From NCBI GenBank assembly GCA_038087875.1, contig CM075991.1:6200001-6264000 (forward strand): DNA of 64,000 nucleotides, written 5' to 3'. This stretch comes from Malacoraja senta. Taxonomy: Eukaryota. The translations under genes were made by a program, and so were the position numbers. Positions 1-25,117 of the stretch are shown one piece after another; position 1 is the stretch's first letter; each line of letters begins with the position of its first letter. The notes beneath the pieces were generated by a model that saw only the letters and a list, made by a program, of their open reading frames with translations, was not told the DNA's origin and did no database searches.

Positions 1-369
1 GCACCTCCCCTTCTCCTAATCTGACACCATTCAGATAATAATCTACCTTCCTGTTCTTGCCACCAAAGTGCATAACCTCACATTTATCCACATTATACTG
101 CATCTGCCATGCTTCTGCCCACTCATCCAACCTATCCAAGTCACCCTGCAGCCTCATAGCATCCTCATCGCAGCTCACACTGCTACCCAGCTTTGTGTCA
201 TCCGCAAACTTAGAGATGTTAAATTTAATTCCCTCGTCTAAATCGTTAATATATATTGTAAACAACTGGGGTCCCAGTACCGAGCCTTGCAGCACACCAC
301 TAGTCACTGCATGCCATTCTGAAAAGGACCCGTTAATTCCTACTCTTTGCTTCCAGTCTGCCAACCAGT
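1..369 (-). mobile_element. CR1-clade LINE RT fragment, cut by the duplication junction (also ~10914-11989)
   Basis: Minus frame encodes QGSVLGPQLFTIYINDLD...KFADDTKL (ORF 11616-12020). Confidence 0.93.
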
Positions 370-1666
370 CTGCCACAGAAGGTAGTAGAGGCCAATTCAC
401 TGGATGAATTTAAAAGTGTTAGATAGAGCTCTAGGGGCTGGCGAAATCAAGGGATATGGGGAGAAGGTAGGCATGGGTTACTGATTGTGGATGATTAGCC
501 ATGATCACAATGAAGGGCCAAATGGCCTCCTTCTGCACCTACTTTCTATGTTTCTATGTAAGGCTGTCAAAGGTTATGGGGAGAAGGCAGGAGAATGGGG
601 TTGAGGGGGGGTGCAGATCAGCCATGATTGAATGGTGGAGTAGACTTGATGGGCTGAATGGCCTAACTCTACTGTGTCTTATGATCTTATTACCAGATAC
701 TATCAATCTAAAGGAGCCATCAGAATAAAAAGGTGGTGCAAAGAGAATTTTCTTCTGACGGGGGAAGTTAAGAGTTGAAATATGCTGCTTCTTGGAACAC
801 ACTATCAAAAGCATTCCACAGGATCATTCTTAAAAGATGCACTTCTATTGGAGTCCTTACATCCCTTTCAGACATAGAGTGCTTTTGTAAAGCAGTCAGT
901 GTTACATACAAAAGTTGGCAGACAGTGAAACTCAGCAAGCTGGCACAAACTACACCATAATAGTGACAAGGCAATCTGCTTTTTTCTTCTGTAATGTTTA
1001 TCAAGGGATACTTATTAACAGGTATCACGGTATAACCCTTCTATTCCTCACAATATTGCCACAGAAAATGTTATGTCCATCTTTGGCATAAAATGTCATG
1101 ACAGGATTTGCACTGGAGTGTCAGAGGATGATTTTTCTGCTCGTTGTCTGGAGCGGGTCTCGAACCCACCACCTTCTGACTGCTAACAACCCACCTTCAG
1201 CAAACATCCAGAGATGGTGTCTGACCCGCAGAGTTACTCCAGCATTGCATCTATCTTGCCAAAGACAATTGGGTTTGCACTTGTGTAGCTGGCTAATGGG
1301 GAAGGGCTGCAGTGTGGAGGATAGATCATATAATTCTTTCAAAAGACCATATTGGGGGAGTTCAGAACCAGGGGTCCCACAGTTTAAGATCTGTGGAATT
1401 CTCTGCCACAGAAGGCAGTGGAGGCCAATTCACTGGATGTTTTCAAGTAAGAGTTAGATATAGCTCTTAGGGCTAACGGAATCAAGGGACATGGGGAGAA
1501 AACAGGAACGGGGTACTGATTTTAGATGATCAGCCATGATCATATTGAATGGCAGTGTTGGCTCGAAGGGTCAAAAGGCCTACTCCTGCACCTATTTTCT
1601 ATGTTTCTATGATACGCTGAATCGATCCTGTCATTCTTTTTAGGGGATTGAGTGTCCTACTGTTGG

Positions 1667-1701
<35 letters not shown>

Positions 1702-1970
1702 CACTCACACATAGAAACACAGAGGTCCCAAACATAGGATTGAATGCTTTCTCCACTGGAACTCATGCAGGATCTAAACACTCTTTTTCGGCCGCCACAA
1801 ATGCTACCCAACTCCACCGAGTTCCTCCAGCAGCTCGTATTTTGTTCCCTCTGGGACTAATCTCCGACATCTCTGCGCAACTTCTACCTAGCGTCTACTG
1901 CATGTCAGAATTTAATCATTCCCACCATTGGCAGCCATTCAATCATTCATCAGCCAAGCCTGGAATTCAG

Positions 1971-2480
1971 GGCAGCACTGTCTCGCAGCGCTAGAGATCC
2001 GGGTTCGATCCCCACCTCGGGCGTGTCTGCGCGGAGTTTGTACGTGCTCCCTGCGACCAGGTGGGTCTCCTCCGGGTGCTCTGGTTCCCTCCCACATCCC
2101 AAATACGTGCAGATTTGTAGGTCGACACAAAGCGCTGGAGTAACTCAGCAGGTCAGGCGGCACCACTGGGGAAAAACCTTGGATGACGACAGAGTCTGAA
2201 GAAGGGTCCTGACCCGAAATGTCACCGATCCTTTCTCTCCAGAGATGCTGCCTGACCCGCCGAGTTATTCCAGGACTTTGCGTCTATCTTTTAATATAAG
2301 CCAGCATCTGCAGCTCCTTGTTTCTACAGACTTGTAGGTGGAGTGGTGCTCCCCCAGGCGTGGAAGGGGTGTACGCGAAAGTGGGATAACATAGAACCAG
2401 TGGGAACGGGAGATCGATGGTCGGCACAAAGCCGGTGGGGCTGAAGGGCCTGTTTACATGCTGTATCTTTCAATAAAAAA
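1971..2480 (+). mobile_element. HE1/V-SINE interrupted by a Penelope-derived palindromic element (~2122-2328); copy at ~13593-14100
   Basis: tRNA-like head with B box ggttcgatccc, V-domain-like core and CR1-like tail. The insert has inverted arms around CTGAAGA-agggtcctgaccc-GAAA. Confidence 0.75.
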
Positions 2481-2881
2481 AATCAATGAATTCTCTCCTT
2501 AAATCTCTCTCCTTTGCTCAATGACACTCCTTATGTCAGCTAGACCTTGCCTCATGTGCCCTGTTACAGGGCAATGTGACAAATATTGCTTCCCTCACGC
2601 TCAGTACAGAACGCCACAGGAGATCCTTCTTCCCTGTGGCTATCAAACTGTACAACTCCTCCCCCCTTCTGTCGTGGAGTAGACCGACTCCCCACCCCTC
2701 CAATCTTTGCACATCCCCAATCCTTTCCACTCGTCACTTTAATTTCATGTTTCATGTATTTTGTGTTTTATAATTTCCCTCCTGGGATAAATAAAAGTTC
2801 TATCTTCTCGTACTCAGGCTGCTATCTAAATGGGTACAAGGTGCTACATGAATGCATGTTGACGCTTTGGTCGACTCTTAC

Positions 2882-2989
2882 CGGCACTGGGTAGAATGAA
2901 GCTGAGTGTTTCTCATCCTCGTACTTGCTATCGGATGCGCTCCCGGGCTCCATGCTGCCCTTGGTGGTTGTATTTCTGCCGTTTCCCAT
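2882..2989 (-). CDS. slc23a2: SVCT2 / solute carrier family 23 member 2, coding part of first coding exon (copy 1); whole exon 2882-3171
   Basis: Minus strand: acceptor ttttattttttatttgattttcag| before 3171, ATG at 2989, 36 codons MGNGRNTTTKGSMEPGSASDSKYEDEKHSASFYPVP, then phase-0 donor |GTAAGA (2881-2876). Matches the human SVCT2 N-terminus as recalled ([36 protein letters not shown]). Confidence 0.88.
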
Positions 2990-3372
2990 CGGTTTCCACA
3001 AGGAACAGAGGCGGAGGGGGTTGAGCGTCTGGTACGAAAATACACCAGGGAGTAGGCTGGGGGGGGGAGGTCAGTTTTCCCACACACCGGCCCCCAGGGA
3101 AGTCAGGTATCAATCAGACGCTCTGCTGACATGACTTGACAATCCAGACGAGTCTGCATACGTCACTAGGTCTGAAAATCAAATAAAAAATAAAACAGAA
3201 TACGTTTCAATTTGAGAATCTGGAACCTGCCTACCATGCAATTACAGACTGGCAAGATGACACTACGCCCAGGAATGATCTTAATAAATGCCATCATTTC
3301 ACCATACAATAGGCAAGGAAAGAAAATTCCATCTGTCAGTCTACAAAGCAATATTTCATACATCTCCGATCT

Positions 3373-3687
3373 GGGCAGCACTGTTTCAAGCAGTAGAGTT
3401 TCTGCCTTACAGCGGCAGAAGACCCAGGTTAGGTCCGAACTATGGGTGCTGTCTGTACAGAGTTCATACGTTCTCCCTGTCTCCACCTGGGTTTTCTAGG
3501 GGTGCACTGGTTTTCTCCCACACTCCAAAGACACACAGGCAAACGCAGGTTAATTAGCTTTGGTAAGTTGTAAAAATATTTGTCCATAGTGCGTGCGTAG
3601 GTTAGTGTACAGGGTGATCGCTGGTTGGCACGGACTCAGTGGGCTGAAGGGCCTGTTTCAAAGCTGTATCTCTAAAGTCTAAAGGTC
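3373..3687 (+). mobile_element. HE1/V-SINE (copy ~14995-15307)
   Basis: gggcagcac... head, ggtgctgtctgtacagagtt core, gggctgaagggcctgtttc...ctgtatctctaaa tail. Confidence 0.85.
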
Positions 3688-4582
3688 TGTTTAACAATAT
3701 CAATTCACATCACAGGCAGGTACGATAGTGGCGTTTACGAGGCTTTTAGATAGGAACATGGGTGTGCAGGGAATGGAGGAATATGGATTGTGTACAGGCA
3801 GATAAGTGTTGGCCGGGAAGGACATTGTGGGTCAAAGAGCCTGATCTTGAGCTGGACTGCTTCACATGGTGTGGTTTGAGTTCCCAGTTTCTACAGGATC
3901 ATGTACAGGCAGATGAGAGCAGTTTAACTCTCGGCATCATGTTCGACAAAAAGCATTGTGGGCCGAAGTGCACCTTCCCGTGTTGTAACTGTTGTCAAAG
4001 TTCAGCCTTCTTCCACATGCTGCCGGTAACAAAAGCAAACACGTTGCTTGAGCACTAACTACGTAATCTCAGTTACTCAGGCGCCATGAGTTTGCAAATT
4101 TAAGGTATTTGAAGTGAACAGTGGGATGATGAAGACAGTATCCTTCTCACGGAAAAGTGTGTGTGTGTGTGTGGTTAGCGAGAGATGAGAGAGAGAGAGA
4201 GAGAGAGAGTGGAGGGGACATGTCTGTATACGCGCGTTTAGAAAGGCTTATGGTGTTTAGATATGAGCCCTTGAAGTGCACACGAGAAGCCGCCATGAAA
4301 ATAAAGCCCACGCCACCCCTCCCCCCAAAACATATTTATAAAACATCCACACAGCCTCTACCGCCAATATATCTTGTGTAACACAATTTAACAGCAACGG
4401 GGACAAGCGCTGGATCTGACAACAGGAGAGAGGGATCAATGCATGTAAATAGAAGGGGGGGGGGAGAGTGGAGAGTCACTGCGATCCGTGGCATTGTCTT
4501 CTTAACCCCTTCCATCTTCACAGCCCGCTGTCATTCCCTCAATGCAGGGACATCATCCACATTTATGAAATCTGCTTTTCTC

Positions 4583-5050
4583 ATCTCCCCTTCCTTCTCC
4601 TCTCCTTCCTCTCTCTCCCTCTTCTTTCTCCCTCCCCTTCCTCTCCCCTCTTCTTTCTCCCTCCTCTCTCTCTCTCCTTCCTTCTCCCTCTCCTCTCTCT
4701 CCCTCCTCTCTCTCCTTCCTTCTCCCTCTCCTCTCTCTCTCTCTCTCCCTCCCCTCTCCCATCTTCTTTCTCCCTCCCCCTCTCTTCCTCCTCTCTCTCT
4801 CCCCTCTTCTCTCTCATTCTCTTTCTCCCTTCTCTCTCTCTCCCACCCCCCTCTCTCCCCCTCTTCTCTCTCATTCTCGCTCTCCCACCCCCCTCTATCA
4901 CCCTCTTCTCTCCCACTCCTCTCTTCTCTCTCATTCTCTCTCTCCCTTCTCTCTCCCACTCCCCTCTTCTCTCTCTCCCTTCTCTCTCTCCCCACCCCCC
5001 CCCCCCTCCCCCTCTCTACCTCCCTCTGTCCCTCTCCTTCCCGCTCTCGC
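4583..5050. repeat. Polypyrimidine (CT-rich) low-complexity tract (second copy ~16197-16666)
   Basis: ~470 bp that is almost entirely C/T on the + strand. Confidence 0.95.
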
Positions 5051-5334
5051 TTATAATTGCTGCGAGCCGTGGCCGGGGGAAGGAAGGCCAGAGAGGGGGA
5101 AGCTTGCGATGCAAATCCATCCACCTCCAGGCTCCGTCTGCAAAGCTCCCAGCGGAGGCCAACGCAACCTTCCAACAAGCGGGTGAAAGTGACATGAAAG
5201 CCGCACCGTGGAGCCTCTGCAATAACGGGAAAGGGGCAAAGCTTGCTCTGGTTGGTGCAAGCTGCATGGGGGGGTGGGTGGTGCAGCTGCGGCGGATGAA
5301 CCGGCTGGCCGTGCATGGAGAGAGAGCTCCTTAC

Positions 5335-5610
5335 CTTGCCAGCGATGCCTCTCACCGCTCCAGCAACCCCACTGCCGGCTGCTAACCGTGCCGGCTCCGC
5401 GCTCCACAACCCGGGCTTCTCAGCCACTGCTGTTCCTGCACTGTGTGCTGGTTTGCAGCCGGAAGACATCACCCGACCCAGCTCTGCTCAACGTCATTCA
5501 CAGGAGAACAGAACCAATTGAGCAGCCGCCTTCCAACGTGCACAGCCACTCACTTGGCAAAACAAAAAAAAGCGCCATCTGCAGTCACCCTCTGATGTGA
5601 ACAGCTAACC
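5335..5610 (-). other. Candidate non-coding upstream exon / CpG-rich promoter region of slc23a2 (second copy ~16948-17220)
   Basis: Non-repeat CpG-rich sequence ~2.2 kb upstream of the coding exon, with a strong donor AAG|GTAAGG at 5335/5334. The 5' boundary is not defined. Confidence 0.35.
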
Positions 5611-5954
5611 TGTTCATTGCACAGAAAGTCCTGGAGGCAGTCCTCTAGGATTCATGATTTTACGGAGAATTAAAAAAAATCCCCCTGTAGGAATAGGCAA
5701 CTCAAGCCACACTGTGTACACGCAGAACAGCACAACACAAGATTGGGCCCTGATCTTGTATCTCTATCTCCCTCTGCCCTGACTAACAGTCTGAAGCAGG
5801 GGATAGACACAAAATGCGTGGAGTAACTCAACGAGACCCTGCTTCAGACTCAGTTCAGATTTAGTCTGAAGCAGGGTCTCGACCCGAAACGCCCCCATTT
5901 CTTGTATCCAGAGATGCTGCCTGTCCCGCTGAGTTACTCCCAGCATGTAAAATT

Positions 5955-6583
5955 TTCAAGATTCAAGAGAGTTTATTGTCATGTGTCCCCTGATAGGACA
6001 ATGAAATTCTTGCTTTTGCTTCAGCACAACAGAACATAGTAGGCATTGACTACAAAACAGATCTAGTGTGTCCATATACCATTATGTAAATATATACACA
6101 CATTGAATAAAATAAACTAGGGGAACTGATGAAGTGCAAATAACAAGATAATGGGCTATTAATGTTCAGAGTTTTTGTCCGAGCCACGTTTAATAGCCTG
6201 ATGGCTGGTGGGGAAGTAGCTATTCCTGAACCTGGTCGTTGCAGTCTTCAGGCTCCTGTACCTTCCACCTGAAGGTAGCGGGGAGATGAAGTGTGTGGCC
6301 AGGATGGTGTGGGTCCTTGATGATACTGCCAGCCTTTTTTTGAGGCAGCGACTGCGATAGATCCCCCTCGATGGAATGGACGTCAGAGCCGATGATGGAC
6401 TGGGCAGTGTTTACTAGACTTTTTGTAGCCTTTTCCTCTCCAGGGCGCTCAAGTTACCGAACCAAGCCACGATACAACCGGTCAGCATGCTCTCTACTGT
6501 GCACCTGTAGAAGTTAGAGAGTCCGTCCTTGACAAACCGACTCTCCCGTAATCTCAGGAAGTAGAGGCGCTGATGTGCTTTCT
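5955..6583 (-). mobile_element. Rex1/Babar-like LINE 3' fragment (copy ~17565-18180)
   Basis: Minus frame LTGCIVAWFGN...RKRLQKVVNTAQSIIG...IYRSRCLKK (ORF 17822-18085); 3' tail with gacaataaa. Confidence 0.85.
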
Positions 6584-6647
6584 TAATAATTGCTAAATTT
6601 TGTGTTTATCTTCGGTTTAAAGCAGCATCTGCAGTTCTTTTCTACAC

Positions 6648-7128
6648 AAGCCGGTGCTGAACAACAGCGCGGCCGGTGCTTGAACAACATCGCGGAGTCC
6701 TGGGGCCCTTTACCGAGGGCCGCCAGCGTTGAATCTCCGCCCAGCATGGCCTGTGGACTTTGGGAGCCGCGGAACCCGGTAGGAGGTGGCCGACTCTGAT
6801 GTCCAGGCCGCTGAGGACCCCAGCCCCGACGTCGGACTTGCATCACCCCGGCGAGCGGGCCTGAACATCGGGCCCGCCCGTAGCGGCGACTGCGGTGGGC
6901 TCGGGGAGGCCCACGACCACGGGTGAACATTGGGGAACATTAGAGGAAGATGACTGACTTTGGGTGCCTTCCCTCACAGTGGCTAACTTTGATTCTGCTG
7001 TGTGGGGATGTTTTATGTTGAACTCTATCGTGTGTTGTGTTCTTTATTTTTATTGTATGGCTGTATGGTGACCACACATTTCACTGTGCCAACCGGCACA
7101 TGTGACAATAAATGTATCTTGTATCTTG
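6648..7128 (+). mobile_element. 5'-truncated GC-rich non-autonomous retroelement with Rex-like 3' tail (copy ~18245-18720)
   Basis: Similar to 21909-22726; ends with stem-loop + gacaataaa + (GTATCTT)n. Confidence 0.65.
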
Positions 7129-7594
7129 TAAGATCAGGCCCGTCTGCCCATAATGTTTGTGCCAAAATGTGCTCATGATCATTGGATATGTAGGGAATGG
7201 GGAGATATGGATCATGTGTAGGAAGAGAAGATTTAGTTTATCTTGGCTTCGTGTGTTGTACATGCACATTGTGGGCAGAAGGCCCTTTCCCTGTCCTACA
7301 AAACTTAAATCTTCAGGGGAATTAAAAACAATTCTGGAGGGTGAGAGGGAACAGAGTGTAACATGTACATGAAGCACCCTCTTACATGAACCAGCACATT
7401 ACCCCAGGGTAGAAAAGAGGTTAGATTAACTTGGCATCATGTTGGGTGCCGACATTGTGGGCCAAAGAGACTGTTACCATGCTGTACTTTTCTGTGTTCT
7501 TGATAAGATCCAAGTCAAAATTCGTCTCTCCTCTCCAGTGTAATCACATGTTCCTGTAATGTGACTAGATCTGTCCATTAGGCTTAAGCTGTGG

Positions 7595-8428
7595 CAAGAT
7601 ACAAGATACATTTATTTGTCACATGTACCAATTGTACAGTGAAATGTCGTGGTCGCCATACAGCCATACGAATAATAAAGAGCATAGAACACGATAGTCC
7701 CCACACAACGGAATCAACGTTTCCCACTGTGAGGGAAGGCTCCAATCATCCTCCTCTGTTGTTCACCCGTGGTCGGGGGGCTCCGAACCCCTCGCAGTCG
7801 CCGCTATGGGCGGCCCGATGTTCAGGCCCTCTCGCCGGGATGATGGAACTCCGACATCGGAAGACGGGAGAACCACCTCAACCGGCTTCGACATCCAAAT
7901 CGGCCACTTCCTACCGGAGTCCGCGGCTCCCGAAGTCCACAGGCCGCGCTGGGCGGAGATTCAACGCTGGCGGCCCTCGTCAAAGGGTCCAGGACTCCGC
8001 GATGTTGAAGTCAGCGCCGCCCGCGCTGGGTGCTCCGCAAACCACAGCTCCCCGATGTTGAAGCAGCAGGCCCAGCACTCCGGAGCTTCAAACGGCGATC
8101 CAGGTAGGTATTGCACGCTCCGCGGTGAATCCAGTGCTGCGCCGCCGCTGCTGAAGCTTTGGCCGGTCCCCGGCAGGAAAGGCCGCTCCAATCCAGTTGG
8201 TTGGTCGTGAGGAGGGGGGGCGAGGACGCGACTCGGAGAATAGTCGCATCCTCGCCAGGAAGTGACTGGGCAACGGTTTCCCCCTTACCCTACCCACCTC
8301 CCCCCACATTAGAAAAACAAAAGAAACCTCCAAAACCCACTTTTAAAACAGACTAAAAATTTAAAAAAGATAGAAAAAACAGACAGACTGGAGGCAGAGG
8401 CAGGCCATCATTGCGGCGCCCCTAGTGG
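7595..8428 (-). mobile_element. Full-length ~830 bp GC-rich non-autonomous retroelement (copies ~9805-10628, ~19185-20008)
   Basis: 5' ggggcgccgc..atggctgcc leader, T-rich block, GC-rich body, stem-loop/gacaataaa/(GTATCTT)n tail. No convincing protein. Confidence 0.7.
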
Positions 8429-8933
8429 TAGCAAGATAAGCATTGTAGACAACTGTAGCATAACCTCCATGCTGTTATGTTCAGTTTTGTTTATTGTCAC
8501 GGTTGTACCGAGGTACAGTGATAAGCTTTTGTTGCATGCTAACCAGTCAGCAAAAAGACAATACATGATTACAATCGATCCATTTACAGTGTATAGATAG
8601 ATGATAAGGAATAATGTTTAGTGCCAGGTATAGCCAGCAAAGTCCGATCATGGATAGTCCAAGGGTCATCAAAGAGGTGGATAGTAGTTCAGCACTGCTC
8701 TCTGGTTGTGGTAGGATAGAAACATAAAAAACAGAACATAGAAATACGTGCAGGAGTAGGTCATTTGGCCCTATGAGCCAGCACCTTCATTCAATATGAT
8801 CATGGCTGATCATCCAAATTCAGTACCCCCATTCCGGCTTTTCCCCCATATCCCTTGATTCCCTTAGCCCTAAGAGCTAAATTTCACTCTCTCTTGAAAA
8901 CATCCAGTTGAATTGGTCTGTGGCAGAGAATTC

Positions 8934-9133
8934 NNNNNNNNNNNNNNNNNNNNNNNNNNNNNNNNNNNNNNNNNNNNNNNNNNNNNNNNNNNNNNNNNNN
9001 NNNNNNNNNNNNNNNNNNNNNNNNNNNNNNNNNNNNNNNNNNNNNNNNNNNNNNNNNNNNNNNNNNNNNNNNNNNNNNNNNNNNNNNNNNNNNNNNNNNN
9101 NNNNNNNNNNNNNNNNNNNNNNNNNNNNNNNNN
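8934..9133. other. Assembly gap (200 N) with redundant flanks
   Basis: 200 N. Sequence after the gap (9134-11128) repeats sequence before it (6922-8933). Confidence 0.99.
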
Positions 9134-12100
9134 GGTGAACATTGGGGAACATTAGAGGAAGATGACTGACTTTTGGTGCCTTCCCTCACAGTGGCTAACT
9201 TTGATTCTGCTGTGTGGGGATGTTTTATGTTGAACTCTATCGTGTGTTGTGTTCTTTATTTTTTATTGTATGGCTGTATGGTGACCACACATTTCACTGT
9301 GCCAACCGGCACATGTGACAATAAATGTATCTTGTATCTTGTAAGATCAGGCCCGTCTGCCCATAATGTTTGTGCCAAATGTGCTCATGATCATTGGATA
9401 TGTAGGGAATGGGGAGATATGGATCATGTGTAGGAAGAGAAGATTTAGTTTATCTTGGCTTCGTGTTGTACATGCACATTGTGGGCAGAAGGCCCTTTCC
9501 CTGTCCTACAAAACTTAAATCTTCAGGGGAATTAAAAACATTCTGGAGGGTGAGAGGGAACAGAGTGTAACATGTACATGAAGCACCCTCTTACATGAAC
9601 CAGCACATTACCCCAGGTAGAAAAGAGGTTAGATTAACTTGGCATCATGTTGGGTGCCGACATTGTGGGCCAAAGAGACTGTTACCATGCTGTACTTTTC
9701 TGTGTTCTTTGATAAGATCCAAGTCAAAATTCGTCTCTCCTCTCCAGTGTAATCACATGTTTCCTGTAATGTGACTAGATCTGTCCATTAGGCTTAAGCT
9801 GTGGCAAGATACAAGATACATTTATTTGTCACATGTACCAATTGTACAGTGAAATGTGTGGTCGCCATACAGCCATACGAATAATAAAGAGCATAGAACA
9901 CGATAGTCCCCACACAACGGAATCAACGTTTCCCACTGTGAGGGAAGGCTCCAATCATCCTCCTCTGTTGTTCACCGTGGTCGGGGGCTCCGAACCCCTC
10001 GCAGTCGCCGCTATGGGCGGCCCGATGTTCAGGCCCTCTCGCCGGGATGATGGAACTCCGACATCGGAACGGGAGAACCACCTCAACGGCTTCGACATCC
10101 AAATCGGCCACTTCCTACCGGAGTCCGCGGCTCCCGAAGTCCACAGGCCGCGCTGGGCGGAGATTCAACGCTGGCGGCCCTCGTCAAAGGGTCCCAGGAC
10201 TCCGCGATGTTGAAGTCAGCGCCGCCCGCGCTGGGTGCTCCGCAAACCACAGCTCCCCGATGTTGAAGCAGCAGGCCCAGCACTCCGGAGCTTCAAACGG
10301 CGATCCAGGTAGGTATTGCACGCTCCGCGGTGAATCCAGTGCTGCGCCGCCGCTGCTGAAGCTTTGGCCGGTCCCCGGCAGGAAAGGCCGCTCCAATCCA
10401 GTTGGTTGGTCGTGAGGAGGGGGGCGAGGACGCGACTCGGAGAATAGTCGCATCCTCGCCAGGAAGTGACTGGGCAACGGTTTCCCCCTTACCCTACCCC
10501 CCTCCCCCACATAGAAAAACAAAAGAAACCTCCAAAACCCACTTTAAAACAGACTAAAAAATTTAAAAAAGATAGAAAAACAGACAGACTGGAGGCAGAG
10601 GCAGCCATCAATGCGGCGCCCCTAGTGGTAGCAAGATAAGCATTGTAACAACTGTAGCATAACCTCCATGCTGTTATGTTCAGTTTTGTTTATTGTCACG
10701 TGTACCGAGGTACAGTGATAAGCTTTTGTTGCATGCTAACCAGTCAGCAAAAAGACAATACATGATTACAATCGATCCATTTACAGTGTATAGATAGATG
10801 ATAAGGGATAATGTTTAGTGCCAGGTATAGCCAGCAAAGTCCGATCATGGATAGTCCAAGGGTCATCAAAGAGGTGGATAGTAGTTCAGCACTGCTCTCT
10901 GGTTGTGGTAGGATAGAAACATAAAAACAGAACATAGAAAATACGTGCAGGAGTAGGTCATTTGGCCCTATGAGCCAGCACCTTCATTCAATATGATCAT
11001 GGCTGATCATCCAAATTCAGTACCCCATTCCGGCTTTTCCCCCATATCCCTTGATTCCCTTAGCCCTAAGAGCTAAATTTCACTCTCTCTTGAAAACATC
11101 CAGTGAATTGGTCTGTGGCAGAGAATTCCACAGATTCACAACTCTCTGGGTTGAAAAGTTTTTCCTCATCTCAGTCCTAAATGGCCTACCCCTTATTCTA
11201 AACTGTGACCCTGGGTCATCGGGAACATTTTTCCTGCATCTACCCTGTCCAATTCTCTAAGAATTATATATGTTTTTATAGGATCCCCTACCATCCTTCT
11301 AAATTCCATTGAATACAAGTCCAGTCAACCCATTCTTCATTATACGTCAGTCCCGCCATCCTGGGAATTAACCTGGTAAACCTACGCTGCATTCCCTCAA
11401 TAGCAATAATGCCCTTCCTCAAATTAGGAGACCAAAATTGCACACAATACTCCAGGTGCGGTCCCTAACAGGGTCCTAAACAACTGCAGTAGGACCTCCT
11501 TGCTCCTAAATTCAAATCTTCTCGCAATGAAGGCCAACATGCCATTGGCTTTCATAACTGCCTGCTATACCTGCATGCTTACTTTCAGAGACTGATGTAA
11601 AAGCACACCCAGGTCTCATTGCACCTCCCCTTCTCCTAATCTGACACCATTCAGATAATAATCTACCTTCCTGTTCTTGCCACCAAAGTGCATAACCTCA
11701 CATTTATCCACATTATACTGCATCTGCCATGCTTCTGCCCACTCATCCAACCTATCCAAGTCACCCTGCAGCCTCATAGCATCCTCATCGCAGCTCACAC
11801 TGCTACCCAGCTTTGTGTCATCCGCAAACTTAGAGATGTTAAATTTAATTCCCTCGTCTAAATCGTTAATATATATTGTAAACAACTGGGGTCCCAGTAC
11901 CGAGCCTTGCAGCACACCACTAGTCACTGCATGCCATTCTGAAAAGGACCCGTTAATTCCTACTCTTTGCTTCCAGTCTGCCAACCAGTCTGCCACAGAA
12001 GGTAGTAGAGGCCAATTCACTGGATGAATTTAAAAGTGTTAGATAGAGCTCTAGGGGCTGGCGAAATCAAGGGATATGGGGAGAAGGTAGGCATGGGTTA

Positions 12101-13288
12101 CTGATTGTGGATGATTAGCCATGATCACAATGAAGGGCCAAATGGCCTCCTTCTGCACCTACTTTCTATGTTTCTATGTAAGGCTGTCAAAGGTTATGGG
12201 GAGAAGGCAGGAGAATGGGGTTGAGGGGGGGTGCAGATCAGCCATGATTGAATGGTGGAGTAGACTTGATGGGCTGAATGGCCTAACTCTACTGTGTCTT
12301 ATGATCTTATTACCAGATACTATCAATCTAAAGGAGCCATCAGAATAAAAAGGTGGTGCAAAGAGAATTTTCTTCTGACGGGGGAAGTTAAGAGTTGAAA
12401 TATGCTGCTTCCTTGGAACACACTATCAAAAGCATTCCACAGGATCATTCTTAAAAGATGCACTTCTATTGGAGTCCTTACATCCCTTTCAGACATAGAG
12501 TGCTTTTGTAAAGCAGTCAGTGTTACATACAAAAGTTGGCAGACAGTGAAACTCAGCAAGCTGGCACAAACTACACCATAATAGTGACAAGGCAATCTGC
12601 TTTTTTTCTTCTGTAATGTTTATCAAGGGATACTTATTAACAGGTATCACGGTATAACCCTTCTATTCCTCACAATATTGCCACAGAAAATGTTATGTCC
12701 ATCTTTGGCATAAAATGTCATGACAGGATTTGCACTGGAGTGTCAGAGGATGATTTTTCTGCTCGTTGTCTGGAGCGGGTCTCGAACCCACCACCTTCTG
12801 ACTGCTAACAACCCACCTTCAGCAAACATCCAGAGATGGTGTCTGACCCGCAGAGTTACTCCAGCATTGCATCTATCTTGCCAAAGACAATTGGGTTTGC
12901 ACTTGTGTAGCTGGCTAATGGGGAAGGGCTGCAGTGTGGAGGATAGATCATATAATTCTTTCAAAAGACCATATTGGGGGAGTTCAGAACCAGGGGTCCC
13001 ACAGTTTAAGATCTGTGGAATTCTCTGCCACAGAAGGCAGTGGAGGCCAATTCACTGGATGTTTTCAAGTAAGAGTTAGATATAGCTCTTAGGGCTAACG
13101 GAATCAAGGGACATGGGGAGAAAACAGGAACGGGGTACTGATTTTAGATGATCAGCCATGATCATATTGAATGGCAGTGTTGGCTCGAAGGGTCAAAAGG
13201 CCTACTCCTGCACCTATTTTCTATGTTTCTATGATACGCTGAATCGATCCTGTCATTCTTTTTAGGGGATTGAGTGTCCTACTGTTGG

Positions 13289-13323
<35 letters not shown>

Positions 13324-14503
13324 CACTCACACATAGAAACACAGAGGTCCCAAACATAGGATTGAATGCTTTCTCCACTGGAACTCATGCAGGATCTAAA
13401 CACTCTTTTTCGGCCGCCACAAATGCTACCCAACTCCACCGAGTTCCTCCAGCAGCTCGTATTTTGTTCCCTCTGGGACTAATCTCCGACATCTCTGCGC
13501 AACTTCTACCTAGCGTCTACTGCATGTCAGAATTTAATCATTCCCACCATTGGCAGCCATTCAATCATTCATCAGCCAAGCCTGGAATTCAGGGCAGCAC
13601 TGTCTCGCAGCGCTAGAGATCCGGGTTCGATCCCCACCTCGGGCGTGTCTGCGCGGAGTTTGTACGTGCTCCCTGCGACCAGGTGGGTCTCCTCCGGGTG
13701 CTCTGGTTCCCTCCCACATCCCAAATACGTGCAGATTTGTAGGTCGACACAAAGCGCTGGAGTAACTCAGCAGGTCAGGCGGCACCACTGGGGAAAAACC
13801 TTGGATGACGACAGAGTCTGAAGAAGGGTCCTGACCCGAAATGTCACCGATCCTTTCTCTCCAGAGATGCTGCCTGACCCGCCGAGTTATTCCAGGACTT
13901 TGCGTCTATCTTTTAATATAAGCCAGCATCTGCAGCTCCTTGTTTCTACAGACTTGTAGGTGGAGTGGTGCTCCCCCAGGCGTGGAAGGGGTGTACGCGA
14001 AAGTGGGATAACATAGAACCAGTGGGAACGGGAGATCGATGGTCGGCACAAAGCCGGTGGGGCTGAAGGGCCTGTTTACATGCTGTATCTTTCAATAAAA
14101 AAAATCAATGAATTCTCTCCTTAAATCTCTCTCCTTTGCTCAATGACACTCCTTATGTCAGCTAGACCTTGCCTCATGTGCCCTGTTACAGGGCAATGTG
14201 ACAAATATTGCTTCCCTCACGCTCAGTACAGAACGCCACAGGAGATCCTTCTTCCCTGTGGCTATCAAACTGTACAACTCCTCCCCCCTTCTGTCGTGGA
14301 GTAGACCGACTCCCCACCCCTCCAATCTTTGCACATCCCCAATCCTTTCCACTCGTCACTTTAATTTCATGTTTCATGTATTTTGTGTTTTATAATTTCC
14401 CTCCTGGGATAAATAAAAGTTCTATCTTCTCGTACTCAGGCTGCTATCTAAATGGGTACAAGGTGCTACATGAATGCATGTTGACGCTTTGGTCGACTCT
14501 TAC

Positions 14504-14611
14504 CGGCACTGGGTAGAATGAAGCTGAGTGTTTCTCATCCTCGTACTTGCTATCGGATGCGCTCCCGGGCTCCATGCTGCCCTTGGTGGTTGTATTTCTG
14601 CCGTTTCCCAT
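14504..14611 (-). CDS. slc23a2: SVCT2 first coding exon, copy 2; whole exon 14504-14793
   Basis: Identical to 2882-3171, with intact acceptor (14794-14795), ATG at 14611 and GTAAGA donor (14503-14498). Confidence 0.88.
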
Positions 14612-15793
14612 CGGTTTCCACAAGGAACAGAGGCGGAGGGGGTTGAGCGTCTGGTACGAAAATACACCAGGGAGTAGGCTGGGGGGGGGAGGTCAGTTTT
14701 CCCACACACCGGCCCCCAGGGAAGTCAGGTATCAATCAGACGCTCTGCTGACATGACTTGACAATCCAGACGAGTCTGCATACGTCACTAGGTCTGAAAA
14801 TCAAATAAAAAATAAAACAGAATACGTTTCAATTTGAGAATCTGGAACCTGCCTACCATGCAATTACAGACTGGCAAGATGACACTACGCCCAGGAATGA
14901 TCTTAATAAATGCCATCATTTCACCATACAATAGGCAAGGAAAGAAAATTCCATCTGTCAGTCTACAAAGCAATATTTCATACATCTCCGATCTGGGCAG
15001 CACTGTTTCAAGCAGTAGAGTTTCTGCCTTACAGCGGCAGAGACCCAGGTTAGGTCCGAACTATGGGTGCTGTCTGTACAGAGTTCATACGTTCTCCCTG
15101 TCTCCACCTGGGTTTTCTAGGGGTGCACTGGTTTTCTCCCACACTCCAAAGACACACAGGCAAACGCAGGTTAATTAGCTTTGGTAAGTTGTAAAAATAT
15201 TTGTCCATAGTGTGCGTAGGTTAGTGTACAGGGTGATCGCTGGTTGGCACGGACTCAGTGGGCTGAAGGGCCTGTTTCAAAGCTGTATCTCTAAAGTCTA
15301 AAGGTCTGTTTAACAATATCAATTCACATCACAGGCAGGTACGATAGTGGCGTTTACGAGGCTTTTAGATAGGAACATGGGTGTGCAGGGAATGGAGGAA
15401 TATGGATTGTGTACAGGCAGATAAGTGTTGGCCGGGAAGGACATTGTGGGTCAAAGAGCCTGATCTTGAGCTGGACTGCTTCACATGGTGTGGTTTGAGT
15501 TCCCAGTTTCTACAGGATCATGTACAGGCAGATGAGAGCAGTTTAACTCGGCATCATGTTCGACAAAAAGCATTGTGGGCCGAAGTGCACCTTCCCGTGT
15601 TGTAACTGTTGTCAAAGTTCAGCCTTCTTCCACATGCTGCCGGTAACAAAAGCAAACACGTTGCTTGAGCACTAACTACGTAATCTCAGTTACTCCAGGC
15701 GCCATGAGTTTGCAAATTTAAGGTATTTGAAGTGAACAGTGGGATGATGAAGACATATCCTTCTCACGGGAAAAGTGTGTGTGTGTGTGTGTT

Positions 15794-15829
<36 letters not shown>

Positions 15830-18800
15830 GGGGACATGTCTGTATACGCGCGTTTAGAAAGGCTTATGGTGTTTAGATATGAGCCCTTGAAGTGCACACG
15901 AGAAGCCGCCATGAAAATAAAGCCCACGCCACCCCTCCCCCCAAAACATATTTATAAAACATCCACACAGCCTCTACCGCCAATATATCTTGTGTAACAC
16001 AATTTAACAGCAAACGGGGAAAGCGCTGGATCTGACAACAGGAGAGAGGGATCAATGCATGTAAATAGAAGGGGGGGGGAGAGTGGAGGTCACTGCGATC
16101 CGTGGCATTGTCTTCTTAACCCCTTCCATCTTCACAGCCCGCTGTCATTCCCTCAATGCAGGGACATCATCCCCATTTATGAAATCTGCTTTTCTCATCT
16201 CCCCTTCCTTCTCCCTCTCCTTCCTTCTCTCTCCCCTCTTCTTTCTCCCTCCCCTTCTCTCTCCCCTCTTCTTTCTCCCTCCTCTCTCTCTCTCCTTCCT
16301 TCTCCCTCTCCTCTCTCTCCCTCCTCTCTCTCCTTCCTTCTCCCTCTCCTCTCTCTCTCTCTCTCCCTCCCCTCTCCCATCTTCTTTCTCCCTCCCCCCT
16401 CTCTTCCTCCTCTCTCTCTCCCCTCTTCTCTCTCATTCTCTTTCTCCCTTCTCTCTCTCTCCCACCCCCTCTCTCCCCCTCTTCTCTCTCATTCTCGCTC
16501 TCCCACCCCCCCTCTATCACCCTCTTCTCTCCCACTCCTCTCTTCTCTCTCATTCTCTCTCTCCCTTCTCTCTCCCACTCCCCTCTTCTCTCTCTCCCTT
16601 CTCTCTCTCCCACCCCCCCCCCCTCCCCCTCTCTACCTCCCTCTGTCCCTCTCCTTCCCGCTCTCTATAATTGCTGCGAGCCGTGGCCGGGGGAAGGAAG
16701 GCCAGAGAGGGGGAAGCTTGCGATGCAAATCCATCCACCTCCAGGCTCCCGTCTGCAAAGCTCCCAGCGGAGGCCAACGCAACCTTCCAACAAGCGGGTG
16801 AAAGTGACATGAAAGCCGCACCGTGGAGCCTCTGCAATAACGGGAAAGGGCAAAGCTTGCTCTGGTTGGTGCAAGCTGCATGGGGGGTGGGTGGTGCAGC
16901 TGCGGCGGATGAACCGGCTGGCCGTGCATGGAGAGAGAGCTCCTTACCTTGCCAGCGAGGCCTCTCACCGCTCCAGCAACCCCACTGCCGGCTGCTACCG
17001 TGCCGGCTCCGCGCTCCACAACCCGGGCTTCTCAGCCACTGCTGTTCCTGCACTGTGTGCTGGTTTGCAGCCGGAAGACATCACCCGACCCAGCTCTGCT
17101 CAACGTCATTCACAGGAGAACAGAACCAATTGCAGCCGCCTTCCAACGTGCACAGCCACTCACTTGGCAAAACAAAAAAAAGCGCCATCTGCAGTCACCC
17201 TCTGATGTGAACAGCTAACCTGTTCATTGCACAGAAAGTCCTGGAGGCAGTCCTCTAGGATTCATGATTTTACGGGAGAATTAAAAAAAATCCCCCTGTA
17301 GGAATAGGCAACTCAAGCCACACTGTGTACACGCAGAACAGCACAACACAAGATTGGGCCCTGATCTTGTATCTCTATCTCCCTCTGCCCTGACTAACAG
17401 TCTGAAGCAGGGGATAGACACAAAATGCTGGAGTAACTCAACGAGACCCTGCTTCAGACTCAGTTCAGATTTAGTCTGAAGCAGGGTCTCGACCCGAAAC
17501 GCCCCCCATTTCTTGTATCCAGAGATGCTGCCTGTCCCGCTGAGTTACTCCAGCATGTAAAATTTTCAAGATTCAAGAGAGTTTATTGTCATGTGTCCCT
17601 GATAGGACAATGAAATTCTTGCTTTGCTTCAGCACAACAGAACATAGTAGGCATTGACTACAAAACAGATCAGTGTGTCCATATACCATTATGTAAATAT
17701 ATACACACATGAATAAATAAACTAGGGGAACTGATGAAGTGCAAATAACAGATAATGGGCTATTAATGTTCAGAGTTTTGTCCGAGCCACGTTTAATAGC
17801 CTGATGGCTGTGGGGAAGTAGCTATTCCTGAACCTGGTCGTTGCAGTCTTCAGGCTCCTGTACCTTCCACCTGAAGGTAGCGGGGAGATGAGTGTGTGGC
17901 CAGGATGGTGTGGGTCCTTGATGATACTGCCAGCCTTTTTTGAGGCAGCGACTGCGATAGATCCCCTCGATGGAATGGACGTCAGAGCCGATGATGGACT
18001 GGGCAGTGTTTACTACTTTTTGTAGCCTTTTCCTCTCCAGGGCGCTCAAGTTACCGAACCAAGCCACGATACAACCGGTCAGCATGCTCTCTACTGTGCA
18101 CCTGTAGAAGTTAGAGAGTCCTCCTTGACAAACCGACTCTCCGTAATCTCAGGAAGTAGAGGCGCTGATGTGCTTTCTTAATAATTGCTAAATTTTGTGT
18201 TTATCTTCGGTTTAAAGCAGCATCTGCAGTTCTTTTCTACACAAGCCGGTGCTGAACAACAGCGCGGCCGGTGCTGAACAACATCGCGGAGTCCTGGGGC
18301 CCTTTACCGAGGGCCGCCAGCGTTGAATCTCCGCCCAGCATGGCCTGTGGACTTTGGGAGCCGCGGAACCCGGTAGGAGGTGGCCGACTCTGATGTCCAG
18401 GCCGCTGAGGACCCCAGCCCCGACGTCGGACTTGCATCACCCCGGCGAGCGGGCCTGAACATCGGGCCGCCCGTAGCGGCGACTGCGGTGGGCTCGGGGA
18501 GGCCCCGACCACGGGTGAACATTGGGGAACATTAGAGGAAGATGACTGACTTTGGTGCCTTCCCTCACAGTGGCTAACTTTGATTCTGCTGTGTGGGGAT
18601 GTTTTATGTTGAACTCTATCGTGTGTTGTGTTCTTTATTTTTTATTGTATGGCTGTATGGTGACCACACATTTCACTGTGCCAACCGGCACATGTGACAA
18701 TAAATGTATCTTGTATCTTGTAAGATCAGGCCCGTCTGCCCATAATGTTTGTGCCAAATGTGCTCATGATCATTGGATATGTAGGGAATGGGGAGATATG

Positions 18801-20295
18801 GATCATGTGTAGGAAGAGAAGATTTAGTTTATCTTGGCTTCGTGTTGTACATGCACATTGTGGGCAGAAGGCCCTTTCCCTGTCCTACAAAACTTAAATC
18901 TTCAGGGGAATTAAAAACAATTCTGGAGGGTGAGAGGGAACAGAGTGTAACATGTACATGAAGCACCCTCTTACATGAACCAGCACATTACCCCAGGTAG
19001 AAAAGAGGTTAGATTAACTTGGCATCATGTTGGGTGCCGACATTGTGGGCCAAAGAGACTGTTACCATGCTGTACTTTTCTGTGTTCTTTGATAAGATCC
19101 AAGTCAAAATTCGTCTCTCCTCTCCAGTGTAATCACATGTTCCTGTAATGTGACTAGATCTGTCCATTAGGCTTAAGCTGTGGCAAGATACAAGATACAT
19201 TTATTTGTCACATGTACCAATTGTACAGTGAAATGTGTGGTCGCCATACAGCCATACGAATAATAAAGAGCATAGAACACGATAGTCCCCACACAACGGA
19301 ATCAACGTTTCCCACTGTGAGGGAAGGCTCCAATCATCCTCCTCTGTTGTTCACCCGTGGTCGGGGGGCTCCGAACCCCTCGCAGTCGCCGCTATGGGCG
19401 GCCCGATGTTCAGGCCCTCTCGCCGGGATGATGGAACTCCGACATCGGAACGGGAGAACCACCTCAACGGCTTCGACATCCAAATCGGCCACTTCCTACC
19501 GGAGTCCGCGGCTCCCGAAGTCCACAGGCCGCGCTGGGCGGAGATTCAACGCTGGCGGCCCTCGTCAAAGGGTCCCAGGACTCCGCGATGTTGAAGTCAG
19601 CGCCGCCCGCGCTGGGTGCTCCGCAAACCACAGCTCCCCGATGTTGAAGCAGCAGGCCCAGCACTCCGGAGCTTCAAACGGCGATCCAGGTAGGTATTGC
19701 ACGCTCCGCGGTGAATCCAGTGCTGCGCCGCCGCTGCTGAAGCTTTGGCCGGTCCCCGGCAGGAAAGGCCGCTCCAATCCAGTTGGTTGGTCGTGAGGAG
19801 GGGGGCGAGGACGCGACTCGGAGAATAGTCGCATCCTCGCCAGGAAGTGACTGGGCAACGGTTTCCCCCTTACCCTACCCCCTCCCCCACATAGAAAAAC
19901 AAAAGAAACCTCCAAAACCCACTTTTAAAACAGACTAAAAATTTAAAAAAGATAGAAAAACAGACAGACTGGAGGCAGAGGCAGCCATCAATGCGGCGCC
20001 CCTAGTGGTAGCAAGATAAGCATTGTAACAACTGTAGCATAACCTCCATGCTGTTATGTTCAGTTTTGTTTATTGTCACGTGTACCGAGGTACAGTGATA
20101 AGCTTTTGTTGCATGCTAACCAGTCAGCAAAAAGACAATACATGATTACAATCGATCCATTTACAGTGTATAGATAGATGATAAGGGAATAATGTTTAGT
20201 GCCAGGTATAGCCAGCAAAGTCCGATCATGGATAGTCCAAGGGTCATCAAAGAGGTGGATAGTAGTTCAGCACTGCTCTCTGGTTGTGGTAGGAT

Positions 20296-23200
20296 AGAAA
20301 CATAAAAACAGAACATAGAAAATACGTGCAGGAGTAGGTCATTTGGCCCTATGAGCCAGCACCTTCATTCAATATGATCATGGCTGATCATCCAAATTCA
20401 GTACCCCATTCCGGCTTTTCCCCCATATCCCTTGATTCCCTTAGCCCTAAGAGCTAAATTTCACTCTCTCTTGAAAACATCCAGTGAATTGGTCTGTGGC
20501 AGAGAATTCCACAGATTCACAACTCTCTGGGTTGAAAAGTTTTTCCTCATCTCAGTCCTAAATGGCCTACCCCTTATTCTAAACTGTGACCCTGGGTCAT
20601 CGGGAACATTTTTCCTGCATCTACCCTGTCCAATTCTCTAAGAATTATATATGTTTTTATAGGATCCCCTACCATCCTTCTAAATTCCATTGAATACAAG
20701 TCCAGTCAACCCATTCTTCATTATACGTCAGTCCCGCCATCCTGGGAATTAACCTGGTAAACCTACGCTGCATTCCCTCAATAGCAATAATGCCCTTCCT
20801 CAAATTAGGAGACCAAAATTGCACACAATACTCCAGGTGCGGTCCCTAACAGGGTCCTAAACAACTGCAGTAGGACCTCCTTGCTCCTAAATTCAAATCT
20901 TCTCGCAATGAAGGCCAACATGCCATTGGCTTTCATAACTGCCTGCTATACCTGCATGCTTACTTTCAGAGACTGATGTAAAAGCACACCCAGGTCTCAT
21001 TGCACCTCCCCTTCTCCTAATCTGACACCATTCAGATAATAATCTACCTTCCTGTTCTTGCCACCAAAGTGCATAACCTCACATTTATCCACATTATACT
21101 GCATCTGCCATGCTTCTGCCCACTCATCCAACCTATCCAAGTCACCCTGCAGCCTCATAGCATCCTCATCGCAGCTCACACTGCTACCCAGCTTTGTGTC
21201 ATCCGCAAACTTAGAGATGTTAAATTTAATTCCCTCGTCTAAATCGTTAATATATATTGTAAACAACTGGGGTCCCAGTACCGAGCCTTGCAGCACACCA
21301 CTAGTCACTGCATGCCATTCTGAAAAGGACCCGTTAATTCCTACTCTTTGCTTCCAGTCTGCCAACCAGTACTCTATCCATGTCAATACCCTACCCCCAA
21401 TACCATGTAGTCTAATTTTGTACATTAATCTCTTGTGTGGGACCTTGTCAAATGCTTTTTGAAAGTCCAGATATACCACATCCACTGACTCTCCCTTATC
21501 CATTCTACTTGTTACATCCTTAAAAAATTTCAAAAGATTAGTCAAGCATGATTTCCCCTTCATAAATCCATGCGGACTTTGACCAATCCCGTCACTGCTT
21601 TCCAAATGCGCTGCTATAATATCTTTAATAGTCGACTCCAGCATCTTCCCCACTACCGATGTAAGGCTAACTGGTCTATAATTCCACCTCTCCCTCCTTT
21701 CTTAAAAAGTGGAGTTATATTGTCTACCCTCCAGTTCACGGGAACTGATTCAGAGTCGAGAGAACATTGGAAAATGATCACCAATACATCCATGATTTCT
21801 AGGGCCACCTCCTTGAGTACTCTGGGATACAGACCATCTGGCCCTGGGGATTTATCTGCCTTCAGTCCCAACAGTTTACCTAACACCATTTTCTAACTAA
21901 TGTGGATAAAGGGGAGCCATCCAGTTGGGTATGGCTGCCCTGCCTGCAGCTGTCCGTCCTTTCACTCCTTTATTTTTTTTTAGTATGTTAAAAGTGTTTT
22001 GTTTGGAGGTCTAGTCTTTTTATGTGGGGTGCGGGGGGGGGGGAGAAGGGGGAAACTGTATTTCTCAGTCCCTATCTGGTCGGAGAGGCGGCTTTCCTCC
22101 GCGCCGCATCTTCGCCCCTGTCCTCGCGGCCTACCATCGGGACTGGAGCGGCGTTTCCTGCCAGGACCAGCCAGAACCTCGGCTTTGGCGGCGGCACAGC
22201 GCTGGAGCGCCATCACGGAGCGGGCGATGCATTGCCCGGGTTACCATGCTGGAGCTCCAGAATGCTGAGTCCGCCGATTGGAACATGGCGGAGCTGCGGG
22301 TCTGTGGTGCTGACTTTAACATCGCGGAGCCTGGGATCTCTCGTCGAGATCGCCAGTGTTGGAGCTCCGACCAGCGAGGCCTGTTGGCTTCGGGAGCCGC
22401 GGTCTCCGGTAAGGAAGCGGCCGTTCCAGGTATTCCAAGCCGCTGAGAGGATTCTCCCGACGCCGGAGCACCATCATCTGGCGAGAGGGCCTGAAACATT
22501 GGGCCGCCGTAGCGGCGACTGCAGAGGCCTCAGTAGGCCCGACTAGGGGAGAACAAGAGGATGAGGACTGGACTTTGTGCCTTCCCCATTGTGGGGGGAT
22601 GTTTTATGTTTAATGTTAAATTCTTCTTTAATGTTGTGTTGTATTCTTATTAGTGTGCTGCAATGGCAACTCGAATTTCACTACACCAATTGGTGTATGT
22701 GACAATAAATGAACCTTTGAACCTTTGATACCCTTCAGTTCATCCTCCCACTAGATCCTCAGTTCCCTAGTATTTCCGGGAGATTGTTTGTGTCTTCCTT
22801 AGTGAAGACAGAACAAAAGTACTCGTATAATTCTTCTGCCATTTCCTTGTTTCCCATTATAAATTCACCTCTCTCTGACTGTAAGGGACCTACATTCGTC
22901 TTCACTAATCTTTTCCTTTTTACATGTAGAAACTTTTACAGTCAGTTTTTATATTCCCCGCAAGCTTTCTCTTATTTTCTTTTTTCCTCCTCTTAATTAA
23001 CCCCTTTGTCCTCCTCTGTTGAGTTCTAAATTTCTCTCAGTCCTCTGGTTTGCCGCTTCCTCTGGCCAATTTATATGCCTCTGCCTTGGCTTTTACACTG
23101 TCCTTGACTTCCCTCTTCAGCCACGGTTGAGCCGCCTTCCCAGTTTTATTTTTTCACCAGACAGGGATGAATTTCTGGAGTTCATCCATGCAGTCTTTAA

Positions 23201-24558
23201 ATCTTCGCCATTGCATCTCCACTGTCAACCCTTTAAGTATACCGTAATTCACCAGTCTATCTTAGCCAATTCCCATGTCATACCTTCAAAGTCTCCTTTA
23301 TTCAATTTCAGGACCCTAGTCTCTAAATTAACCGTGTCACTCTCCATCCTAACGCAGAATTCCCCTGTTGCCCAAGGGGCCTTGCACAACAAGATCGCTA
23401 ACTAATCCTTCCTCATTACACAATACCCAGTCTAGGATGCCCTGCCCTCTAACCAGTTCCTCTACATATTGATTTAAAAACCCCATCACTTCTGCATTCC
23501 AGGAAATCCTCCTCATCAGGGCTGCTATCAATTTGGTTGGCCCAATCTGTATGTAGATTAAAGTCACCCATGATAACCGCTGCACCTTTGCTACACACAT
23601 CCCTAATTTCCTGCTTGATGCTATCCCCAACCTCCCTACTGCTGTTTGGTGGTCTGTATACAACTCCAACAAGCGTTTTCTGCCCTTGGTTATTTCGCAA
23701 TTCTACCCATACCGATTCTACAGCATCCAAGCTAATGTCTCTACTTGCTATTGCATTAATCTCCTCTTTAATCAACAATACCACCCCACCTCCTCTTCCT
23801 TTCTGTCTATCCTTCCTGAATATCAAATCCCCCTGCATGTTTAGCTCCCAGCCTTGATCACCCTGGAGCCATGCCTCACTAATTCCAACTATATCATATC
23901 CCTTAACTACTAACTGCGAATTCAATTCATCCATTAGCTGCACGGATACACGTGTTCCCCCCCCCCCCCCCACCACTTTTTAGGTTAAGCCCACCCGTGT
24001 AGCATTAGCAAACCTGCCTGCCAGAATGTCTGTCCCCTTACAATTAAGGTGCAACCCGTCCCTTTTGTACAGGCCACCACTGCCCCAGAAGAGATTCCAG
24101 TGATCTAGAAATCTAAATCCCTGCCCCCTTGCACCAACTTCTCAGCCACTCATTCAGATCCCCAACTCCCTGTTCCTACCCTCACTAGCACGAGGTACTG
24201 GAAGCAACCCAGAGATAACCACCCTAGAAGTCCTGCTTTTCAGCCTCCTCCCTAGTTCTCTATACTCACGTTGCAGAACCTCCTTCCACTGCTTACCCAC
24301 GTCATTTGTGCCTTCATGCACAACTACATCCGGCTGCTGACCTTCCCTCTCAAGGATGTTCCGAAGTTGGTCTGAGACATCTTGGCACCAATGAGGCAAC
24401 ACACCATCTGAATCTCCTGTCCGCACCTCGGACAATGGATTCACCCACCATTATGGCCCTGTCTGACGTCGATCTCTTCTCAGTGCTAGGATTTGAGTCA
24501 CAGACCTGTCCCGCCGCTCTGGACTGGACTGGAAGCGTCGTCTGAGCCGACAGCTCCC
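20296..24558 (-). mobile_element. Near full-length degenerate CR1 (HER1-like) LINE: ORF1 SGNH-esterase-like, ORF2 APE endonuclease + RT
   Basis: ORF1 VVVHEGTNDV...VVISGLLP (24154-24444); EN GISEAW...GVVYRPP...MGDFN (23449-23976); RT KSPGPDG, LDFQKAFDKV, FADD (20997-21889); ATAGAAAC-like tail at ~20296. Frameshifted. Splits a Rex-like fragment (~20055-20295 / ~24559-24845). Confidence 0.95.
21909..22726 (+). mobile_element. ~820 bp GC-rich non-autonomous retroelement inserted in the CR1
   Basis: GATA on both sides (21905-08, 22727-30), and removal restores CR1 atgtggata|cccttcag. Has atggctgcc leader and tail gacaataaat(GAACCTTT)2. Confidence 0.8.
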
Positions 24559-25117
24559 AAGATAATTCAGTTGCCTGATAACAGCTGGGAAGAAACTGTC
24601 CCCGATTCTGGTGGGATGTGTTTTCACACTTCTATACATTTTGCCTGTGAGGAGAGGGGAGAAGAGGGAGTGGCCGGGGTGCAACTCATCCTTAATTATG
24701 CTGCTGGCCTTGCAGAGGCAGCGTGAGGTATAAATGGAGTCAATACAATGGGAGGTTGCTTCGTGTGATGGTCTGGGCTGCCCTCACAATTCGCTGCAAT
24801 TCCTTGCATTCTTGGATGGAGCTGTTCCCAAGCCAAGCTGTGATGCTGTTATATTCAAAGATTTGTCTAATAAAGAAAGGAATCTCCTGTGCCATTTCTT
24901 TATATTACCTCATCCATCTGCCCTGCAACCTTTAAGGATCTGAGATCATTTTCCTCTGTCCTTCATTAATTCTGTTCACTATTAATCTATAATTTGTCAT
25001 TTACGTAATTTGTCATTTCCTGAATATCGAATACCCCTAAATGTTTAGCTCCCAGCCTTGGTCACCCTGGAGCCATATCTCCATAATTCCACCTATATCA
25101 TATCCCTTAACTACTAA

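Follow-up and report, generated by a model that had tools for sequence, protein, structure and literature searches.

Several described systems offer close comparisons for the locus examined here. In genome assemblies, false duplications carry two marks, a gap between the duplicates and sequence errors, according to the sections of Ko et al. (2022; PMC9516828) drawn on here. The homotype class of that study resembles the present locus in that gap-separated duplicates differ by error-like indels rather than by alleles; it differs in that each contig here contains a defined head-to-tail junction at a distance from the gap. Among genuine rearrangements, non-recurrent microhomology-mediated copy-number variants (FoSTeS, serial replication slippage and MMBIR; PMC3597517, cited from an excerpt) likewise have breakpoints that fall in repeats without long homology, and a short repeated motif marks the join, as it does here. 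That excerpt concerns human deletions.

Human SLC23A2 possesses two alternative first exons, 1a and 1b, each with its own promoter, and the gene is essential in mice (both from the cited portion of PMC3332055). By analogy with exons 1a and 1b, a non-coding exon is expected upstream of the coding sequence in the skate, where a candidate donor is found at 16948. Among the listed titles and abstract openings on slc23a2 in skates, none describes this duplication, and the consulted part of 10.1101/287870 treats slc23 family membership rather than this locus.

In the 64-kb stretch of DNA analysed here (the window), the first coding exon of slc23a2 appears twice, on either side of a run of 200 N. By sequence, the locus bears the hallmarks both of a true intragenic tandem duplication of 5' exons and of a false duplication at a gap. 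From the assembled sequence, we consider it probable that two or more units arose by tandem duplication very recently and were badly joined in the assembly. The 9,381-bp head-to-tail duplication would span the first coding exon together with a probable upstream non-coding exon, and the assembly would have broken inside it and left the two contig ends unmerged.

The slc23a2 first coding exon

The exon and the candidate element upstream of it occupy the following positions.

2882-3171, minus strand: left visible copy of the slc23a2 first coding exon (182 nt of UTR and 108 nt of coding sequence; ATG at 2989)
14504-14793, minus strand: right visible copy of the slc23a2 first coding exon (ATG at 14611, preceded by further ATGs at 14781 and 14754)
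16948-17294, minus strand: candidate upstream non-coding exon or promoter, ending at donor AAG/GTAAGG at 16948 (5335 in the left copy)

The minus-strand exons at 2882-3171 and 14504-14793 are identical over 290 nt, and each follows a pyrimidine-rich AG acceptor, ends at a GTAAGA donor and has its ATG 108 nt ahead of that donor, in agreement with the initial annotation, which had described two identical 290-nt exons with intact splice sites and start codon. The coding part comprises 36 codons and reaches the donor in phase 0. A protein search with a 40-residue query, which included four codons upstream of the ATG, passed three of six candidates (E 6.6e-12 to 1.5e-8), two of them named SLC23A2 and derived from batoids. 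The 36-residue peptide, for which the initial annotation had proposed a homology check, indeed matches the SLC23A2 N-terminus: 35 of 36 residues (97%) are identical to the Amblyraja radiata (thorny skate) model XP_032869905.1 (P0006), and identity is 92% to Leucoraja erinacea XP_055518172.1 and 83% to Rhinoraja longicauda XP_078285304.1. The orthologues run on at residue 37, in register with the phase-0 donor after codon 36, and the full-length A. radiata SLC23A2 protein bears the permease family PF00860. On these sequence matches, the slc23a2 first coding exon is genuine, and the DNA comes from a skate closely related to A. radiata. This assembly departs from the skate orthologues in presenting the exon twice.

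Codon 3 (14603-14605 and 2981-2983) encodes Asn in both visible copies; the corresponding residue is Ile in the A. radiata and L. erinacea models and Thr in that of R. longicauda. In a further full-length relative (P0007), an N-terminal extension aligns in frame from 14668, and if that record represents an RNA contig, as we infer, the part of the exon from 14668 would be transcribed in a related skate. A tblastn search for other slc23a2 exons within the window found none beyond the first coding exon; the remaining exons have to be situated further left, outside the window. A search of solved structures with the 36-residue peptide returned zero matches and is uninformative.

The minus-strand donor at 16948 scores highest among the 988 minus-strand GT sites in 11990-30751, and the segment that carries it has no paralogue in 11990-64000. 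In the region of about 5.0-5.6 kb, for which a promoter had been suggested, this strong donor was found and nothing more. Possible acceptors lie further upstream of the candidate exon, for example at 17162. On the minus strand, 16791-16806 and its counterpart 5176-5191, about 140 nt downstream of the candidate donor, match part of a human SVCT2 exon 1a E-box probe at 14 of 16 positions (0.04 expected). This match was rejected as promoter evidence and is at most a weak lead, having been noticed visually and selected post hoc among three probes; of the E-box core and CCAAT box of the human exon 1a probes, neither is kept at this one similar skate site.

Repeat unit, assembly gap and contig ends

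The repeat unit is 9,381 bp long (11990-21370), and its parts are arranged around the gap as follows.

1-369, plus strand: unit tail in the left contig, holding LINE reverse-transcriptase fragment only, 100% identical to 21002-21370
370-8933, plus strand: left-contig portion of the unit, comprising its first 8,564 bp and bounded by the gap, with errors abundant towards the gap; matches 11990-20509
8934-9133, no strand: assembly gap of 200 N, with the same 2.0 kb of sequence on each side (6922-8933 = 9134-11128)
9134-11989, plus strand: closing 2,856 bp of the unit, with which the right contig opens; matches 18514-21370
11973-11995, plus strand: head-to-tail junction 11989/11990 with the 11-nt direct repeat CCAGTCTGCCA; the same join occurs at 369/370
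11990-21370, plus strand: sole complete 9,381-bp unit, running rightward into unique sequence and carrying the majority letter in the zone covered three times
11990-12186, plus strand: LINE 3'-end fragment, which we take to be of CR1 type, truncated by the left breakpoint; other copies in the window match it at 70-76%
20997-21701, minus strand: LINE reverse-transcriptase fragment holding the right breakpoint 21370/21371, with an open frame through the breakpoint (Pfam RVT_1, E=1.3e-30)

Self-BLAST aligns 1-8933 with 11621-20509 at 99.0% (4 mismatches, 72 gap openings), 9134-11989 with 18514-21370 at 99.7% (0 mismatches, 9 gap openings), 6922-8933 with 9134-11128 at 98.4% (4 mismatches, 26 gap openings) and 1-369 with 21002-21370 at 100%. 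The left copy lacks the final 817 bp of a full unit, and only one complete unit lies within the window. Of the left-most unit, 369 bp are visible, all of them repeat sequence; the remainder falls outside the window. The unit size of a proposed 9.38-kb tandem duplication thus stands, whereas the picture of a clean tandem pair gives way to a 200-N gap, which the initial annotation leaves unmentioned, an incomplete left copy and exons spaced 11,622 bp apart rather than 9,381.

Paralogues elsewhere in the window account for about 53% of the unit, and by sequence its content is that of an ordinary repeat-rich intron; its non-repeat segments include 12294-12827, 14425-14992 and 16669-17294. A repeat of roughly 460 bp occurs within it as an inverted pair (18260-18720 and 19184-19614, 79%), and the start of the right contig falls inside the counterpart of the first member. 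Among frames of at least 90 codons, none in 21371-64000, rightward of the unit, was recognised as a host protein-coding exon. That region contains a tyrosine-recombinase retroelement (37097-46832), presumably DIRS-like, with 41-nt inverted ends (37097-37137 and 46792-46832, 95%), an RVT_1 match at 44108-44785 and, at 45630-46622, a frame of phage-integrase type. Its reverse-transcriptase region is split by a 5.17-kb insertion (38949-44120) with 41-nt inverted ends (88%) and a 246-codon frame at 40525-41265, which has no Pfam match and which we take to resemble a Harbinger-type transposase. A long LINE reverse-transcriptase frame (47128-50800; 442 codons, RVT_1 E=2e-41) seems to be broken in its downstream part by another element with an RT, at 49412-50329.

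The differences between copies have the character of consensus errors. Left and right contigs differ at 76 sites in 8.9 kb, comprising 3 substitutions and 73 indels; the copies are identical in the exon and not outside it. One-base events make up 65 of the 73 indels, and the left contig carries extra bases in 54 and missing bases in 19 (binomial p=5e-5). Only two of the 76 differences fall in 1-3400, against 74 in 3401-8933 (p=2e-13, for a boundary picked once the list had been inspected). Compared with 18514-21370, the opening stretch of the right contig shows no substitutions and nine one-base indels, all of them within 9134-10807 (p=0.008). Where three versions of the sequence can be compared, a tally from pairwise counts assigns 24 differences to the left end, nine to the right-contig start and none to the full unit, although about three neighbouring sites could instead be errors of the full unit. 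A retroelement frame that is open for 108 codons in the full unit is shortened in the left copy to 77. Among older repeat pairs of the window, one finds the opposite balance of mismatches to gaps (self-BLAST columns, for example 133 to 10 and 52 to 16).

Consensus built from noisy long reads at low depth produces insertion-biased error. Both gap-facing contig ends look like such low-quality consensus, and the pattern suggests that the differences are sequencing errors rather than alleles. Given the gap and the errors at the contig ends, at least 2.0 kb of flanking sequence was written twice by the assembly, and the doubly written sequence possibly extends to 11.4 kb; the suspicion that one visible copy may be an assembly duplicate thus agrees with the 200-N gap and the error pattern. 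A word search of sequencing runs with 12300-17400 as query listed 24 runs, none of them RNA; 23 contained some of the words and one contained half or more. Runs from the same study shared 0.81 (X1) and 0.42 (X2); X1 may be the source of the assembly, and small shares are no evidence.

The head-to-tail junction and the number of units

The repeat junction that had been placed at 369/370 is identical to the join at 11989/11990. It brings together the middle of an antisense LINE reverse-transcriptase fragment, whose open frame continues past 21370, and a sense LINE 3'-end fragment, and it creates the 11-nt direct repeat CCAGTCTGCCA at 11973-11983 and 11985-11995. A repeat of this length was reached in 0.3% of 20,000 random joins, by a statistic defined after the junction was seen. 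The flanks are clean: 1-789 matches the right contig without differences, as do the 1,182 bp ahead of the junction (10808-11989) when compared with 20189-21370. Homology between the breakpoints was sought between 11990-12300 and 20901-21900, and none was found (best match 17 nt, E 0.45). Non-allelic homologous recombination between the LINEs was rejected, long same-orientation homology being absent at the breakpoints. We judge from the sequence that the junction is probably biological and that it most likely arose by template switching at short microhomologies. The microhomology is read from paralogous repeat copies, the original left flank lying outside the window. Because the copies show no reliable substitutions, the event would be very recent.

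Under a two-unit duplication, the contigs would overlap by 11.4 kb (2,856 + 8,564 bp), both junctions would be one and the same, the two visible exons would be a single physical exon whose partner lies left of the window, and 11,620 nt of the window would be redundant. Under three or more units, the overlap would be 2.0 kb, 2,195 nt would be redundant and the visible exons would be distinct. Within the duplication reading, we give the two-unit version a little over half the weight. The left contig stops 817 bp early, before any new junction or unique sequence, as would be expected of an unresolved repeat.

The duplication reading is drawn from the assembly, and both contigs could have inherited the junction from the same few reads. 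The locus might be single-copy, with a chimeric library molecule or a rare extrachromosomal circle, either of which could give the same junction, absorbed by both contigs. The gap between the duplicates is a hallmark of false duplication, and the pattern fits the homotype class in the account of PMC9516828 used here; convincing substitutions are lacking (3 of 76 and 0 of 9 differences) and the indels are error-like. The skate protein models examined also have a single N-terminus, which is expected under every reading since the doubled exon gives a stop. In both contigs, however, the junction falls where the sequence is cleanest, and it bears a repeat that resembles microhomology. Plain unmerged overlap creates no such head-to-tail junction, and since the breakpoints share no homology that could seed a mis-join, an overlap assembler would have had no basis for inventing it. 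We therefore regard a pure artefact as unlikely.

It is improbable that the junction is real but the duplication involves the unit tail only, with at least 2.86 kb of tail preceding the unit, a single-copy exon and a second appearance of that exon produced by contig overlap. The pre-junction sequence visible on the left (369 bp) and on the right (2,856 bp) is without the exon in both cases, which speaks for such an arrangement. A simple head-to-tail duplication, however, is one event, whereas the version with two breakpoints would need a second, unseen junction.

Predicted transcripts and consequences for slc23a2

Should both exons of a tandem duplication be spliced together, the reading frame would run through 36 codons into ACC TAG, giving a 37-codon uORF; the arithmetic put forward in the initial annotation is reproduced from the sequence. 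The stop lies 284 nt before the next exon junction. In HeLa reporters, decay is triggered by stops at least 50 nt upstream of a junction complex, and reinitiation gives no robust protection from nonsense-mediated decay (PMC10187673, in the extract used here). By that rule the exon-repeated mRNA is more likely to be destroyed than gently dampened. Of the earlier proposal that the repeat dampens translation rather than lengthening the protein, the second half survives, since the exon-exon and the exon-upstream exon-exon paths both stop early and a lengthened protein was rejected; gentle dampening gives way to predicted decay. The repeated path also stops early if the candidate upstream exon is taken as an internal exon (148-nt candidate).

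Exon-repeated transcripts would thus terminate after 37 codons and then be degraded or poorly translated, and transcripts that skip one copy or start at a promoter in the downstream unit would be normal. If the 16948 donor ends a first exon, the downstream unit would constitute a complete transcription unit that yields normal mRNA. The native exon already contains two out-of-frame upstream ATGs (18 and 9 codons), and its best in-frame Kozak context is at Met13. The net effect of the duplication on the gene would probably be small. RNA-seq reads joining the exon end to its own start, proposed earlier as a test, are unspecific: back-spliced circular RNA looks alike, and such a read cannot distinguish exon duplication from back-splicing (PMC6797608, as excerpted).

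It is very doubtful that a real array of three or more promoter and first-exon units differs from skate to skate and sets vitamin C uptake through copy number; in such an array each extra upstream unit would feed exon-repeated, decay-bound transcripts and would interfere with the last intact unit. Also very doubtful is a functional regulatory array whose promoter and first-exon copies are kept, or vary among individuals, to tune vitamin C uptake: the unit does hold, 2.2 kb upstream of the exon, the site closest to the donor consensus and a segment free of repeats, and uORFs reduce mRNA stability via nonsense-mediated decay (PMC10187673, same extract), but an event whose copies lack reliable substitutions is too young for retention to show, and the paralogue-rich unit resembles ordinary intron. 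The regulatory copy-number variant envisaged in the initial annotation finds no support in any result; upstream ATGs are already native to the exon, and a promoter within the unit would leave an intact downstream transcription unit.

The locus matters mainly for curation: at least 2.2 kb and perhaps 11.6 kb of the window is redundant, and annotation could register an exon gain that is false. The duplication, if confirmed, would be an ordinary intragenic copy-number variant of slc23a2, a known kind of variant, which would deserve wider attention only if animals differed in copy number and transporter expression followed it.
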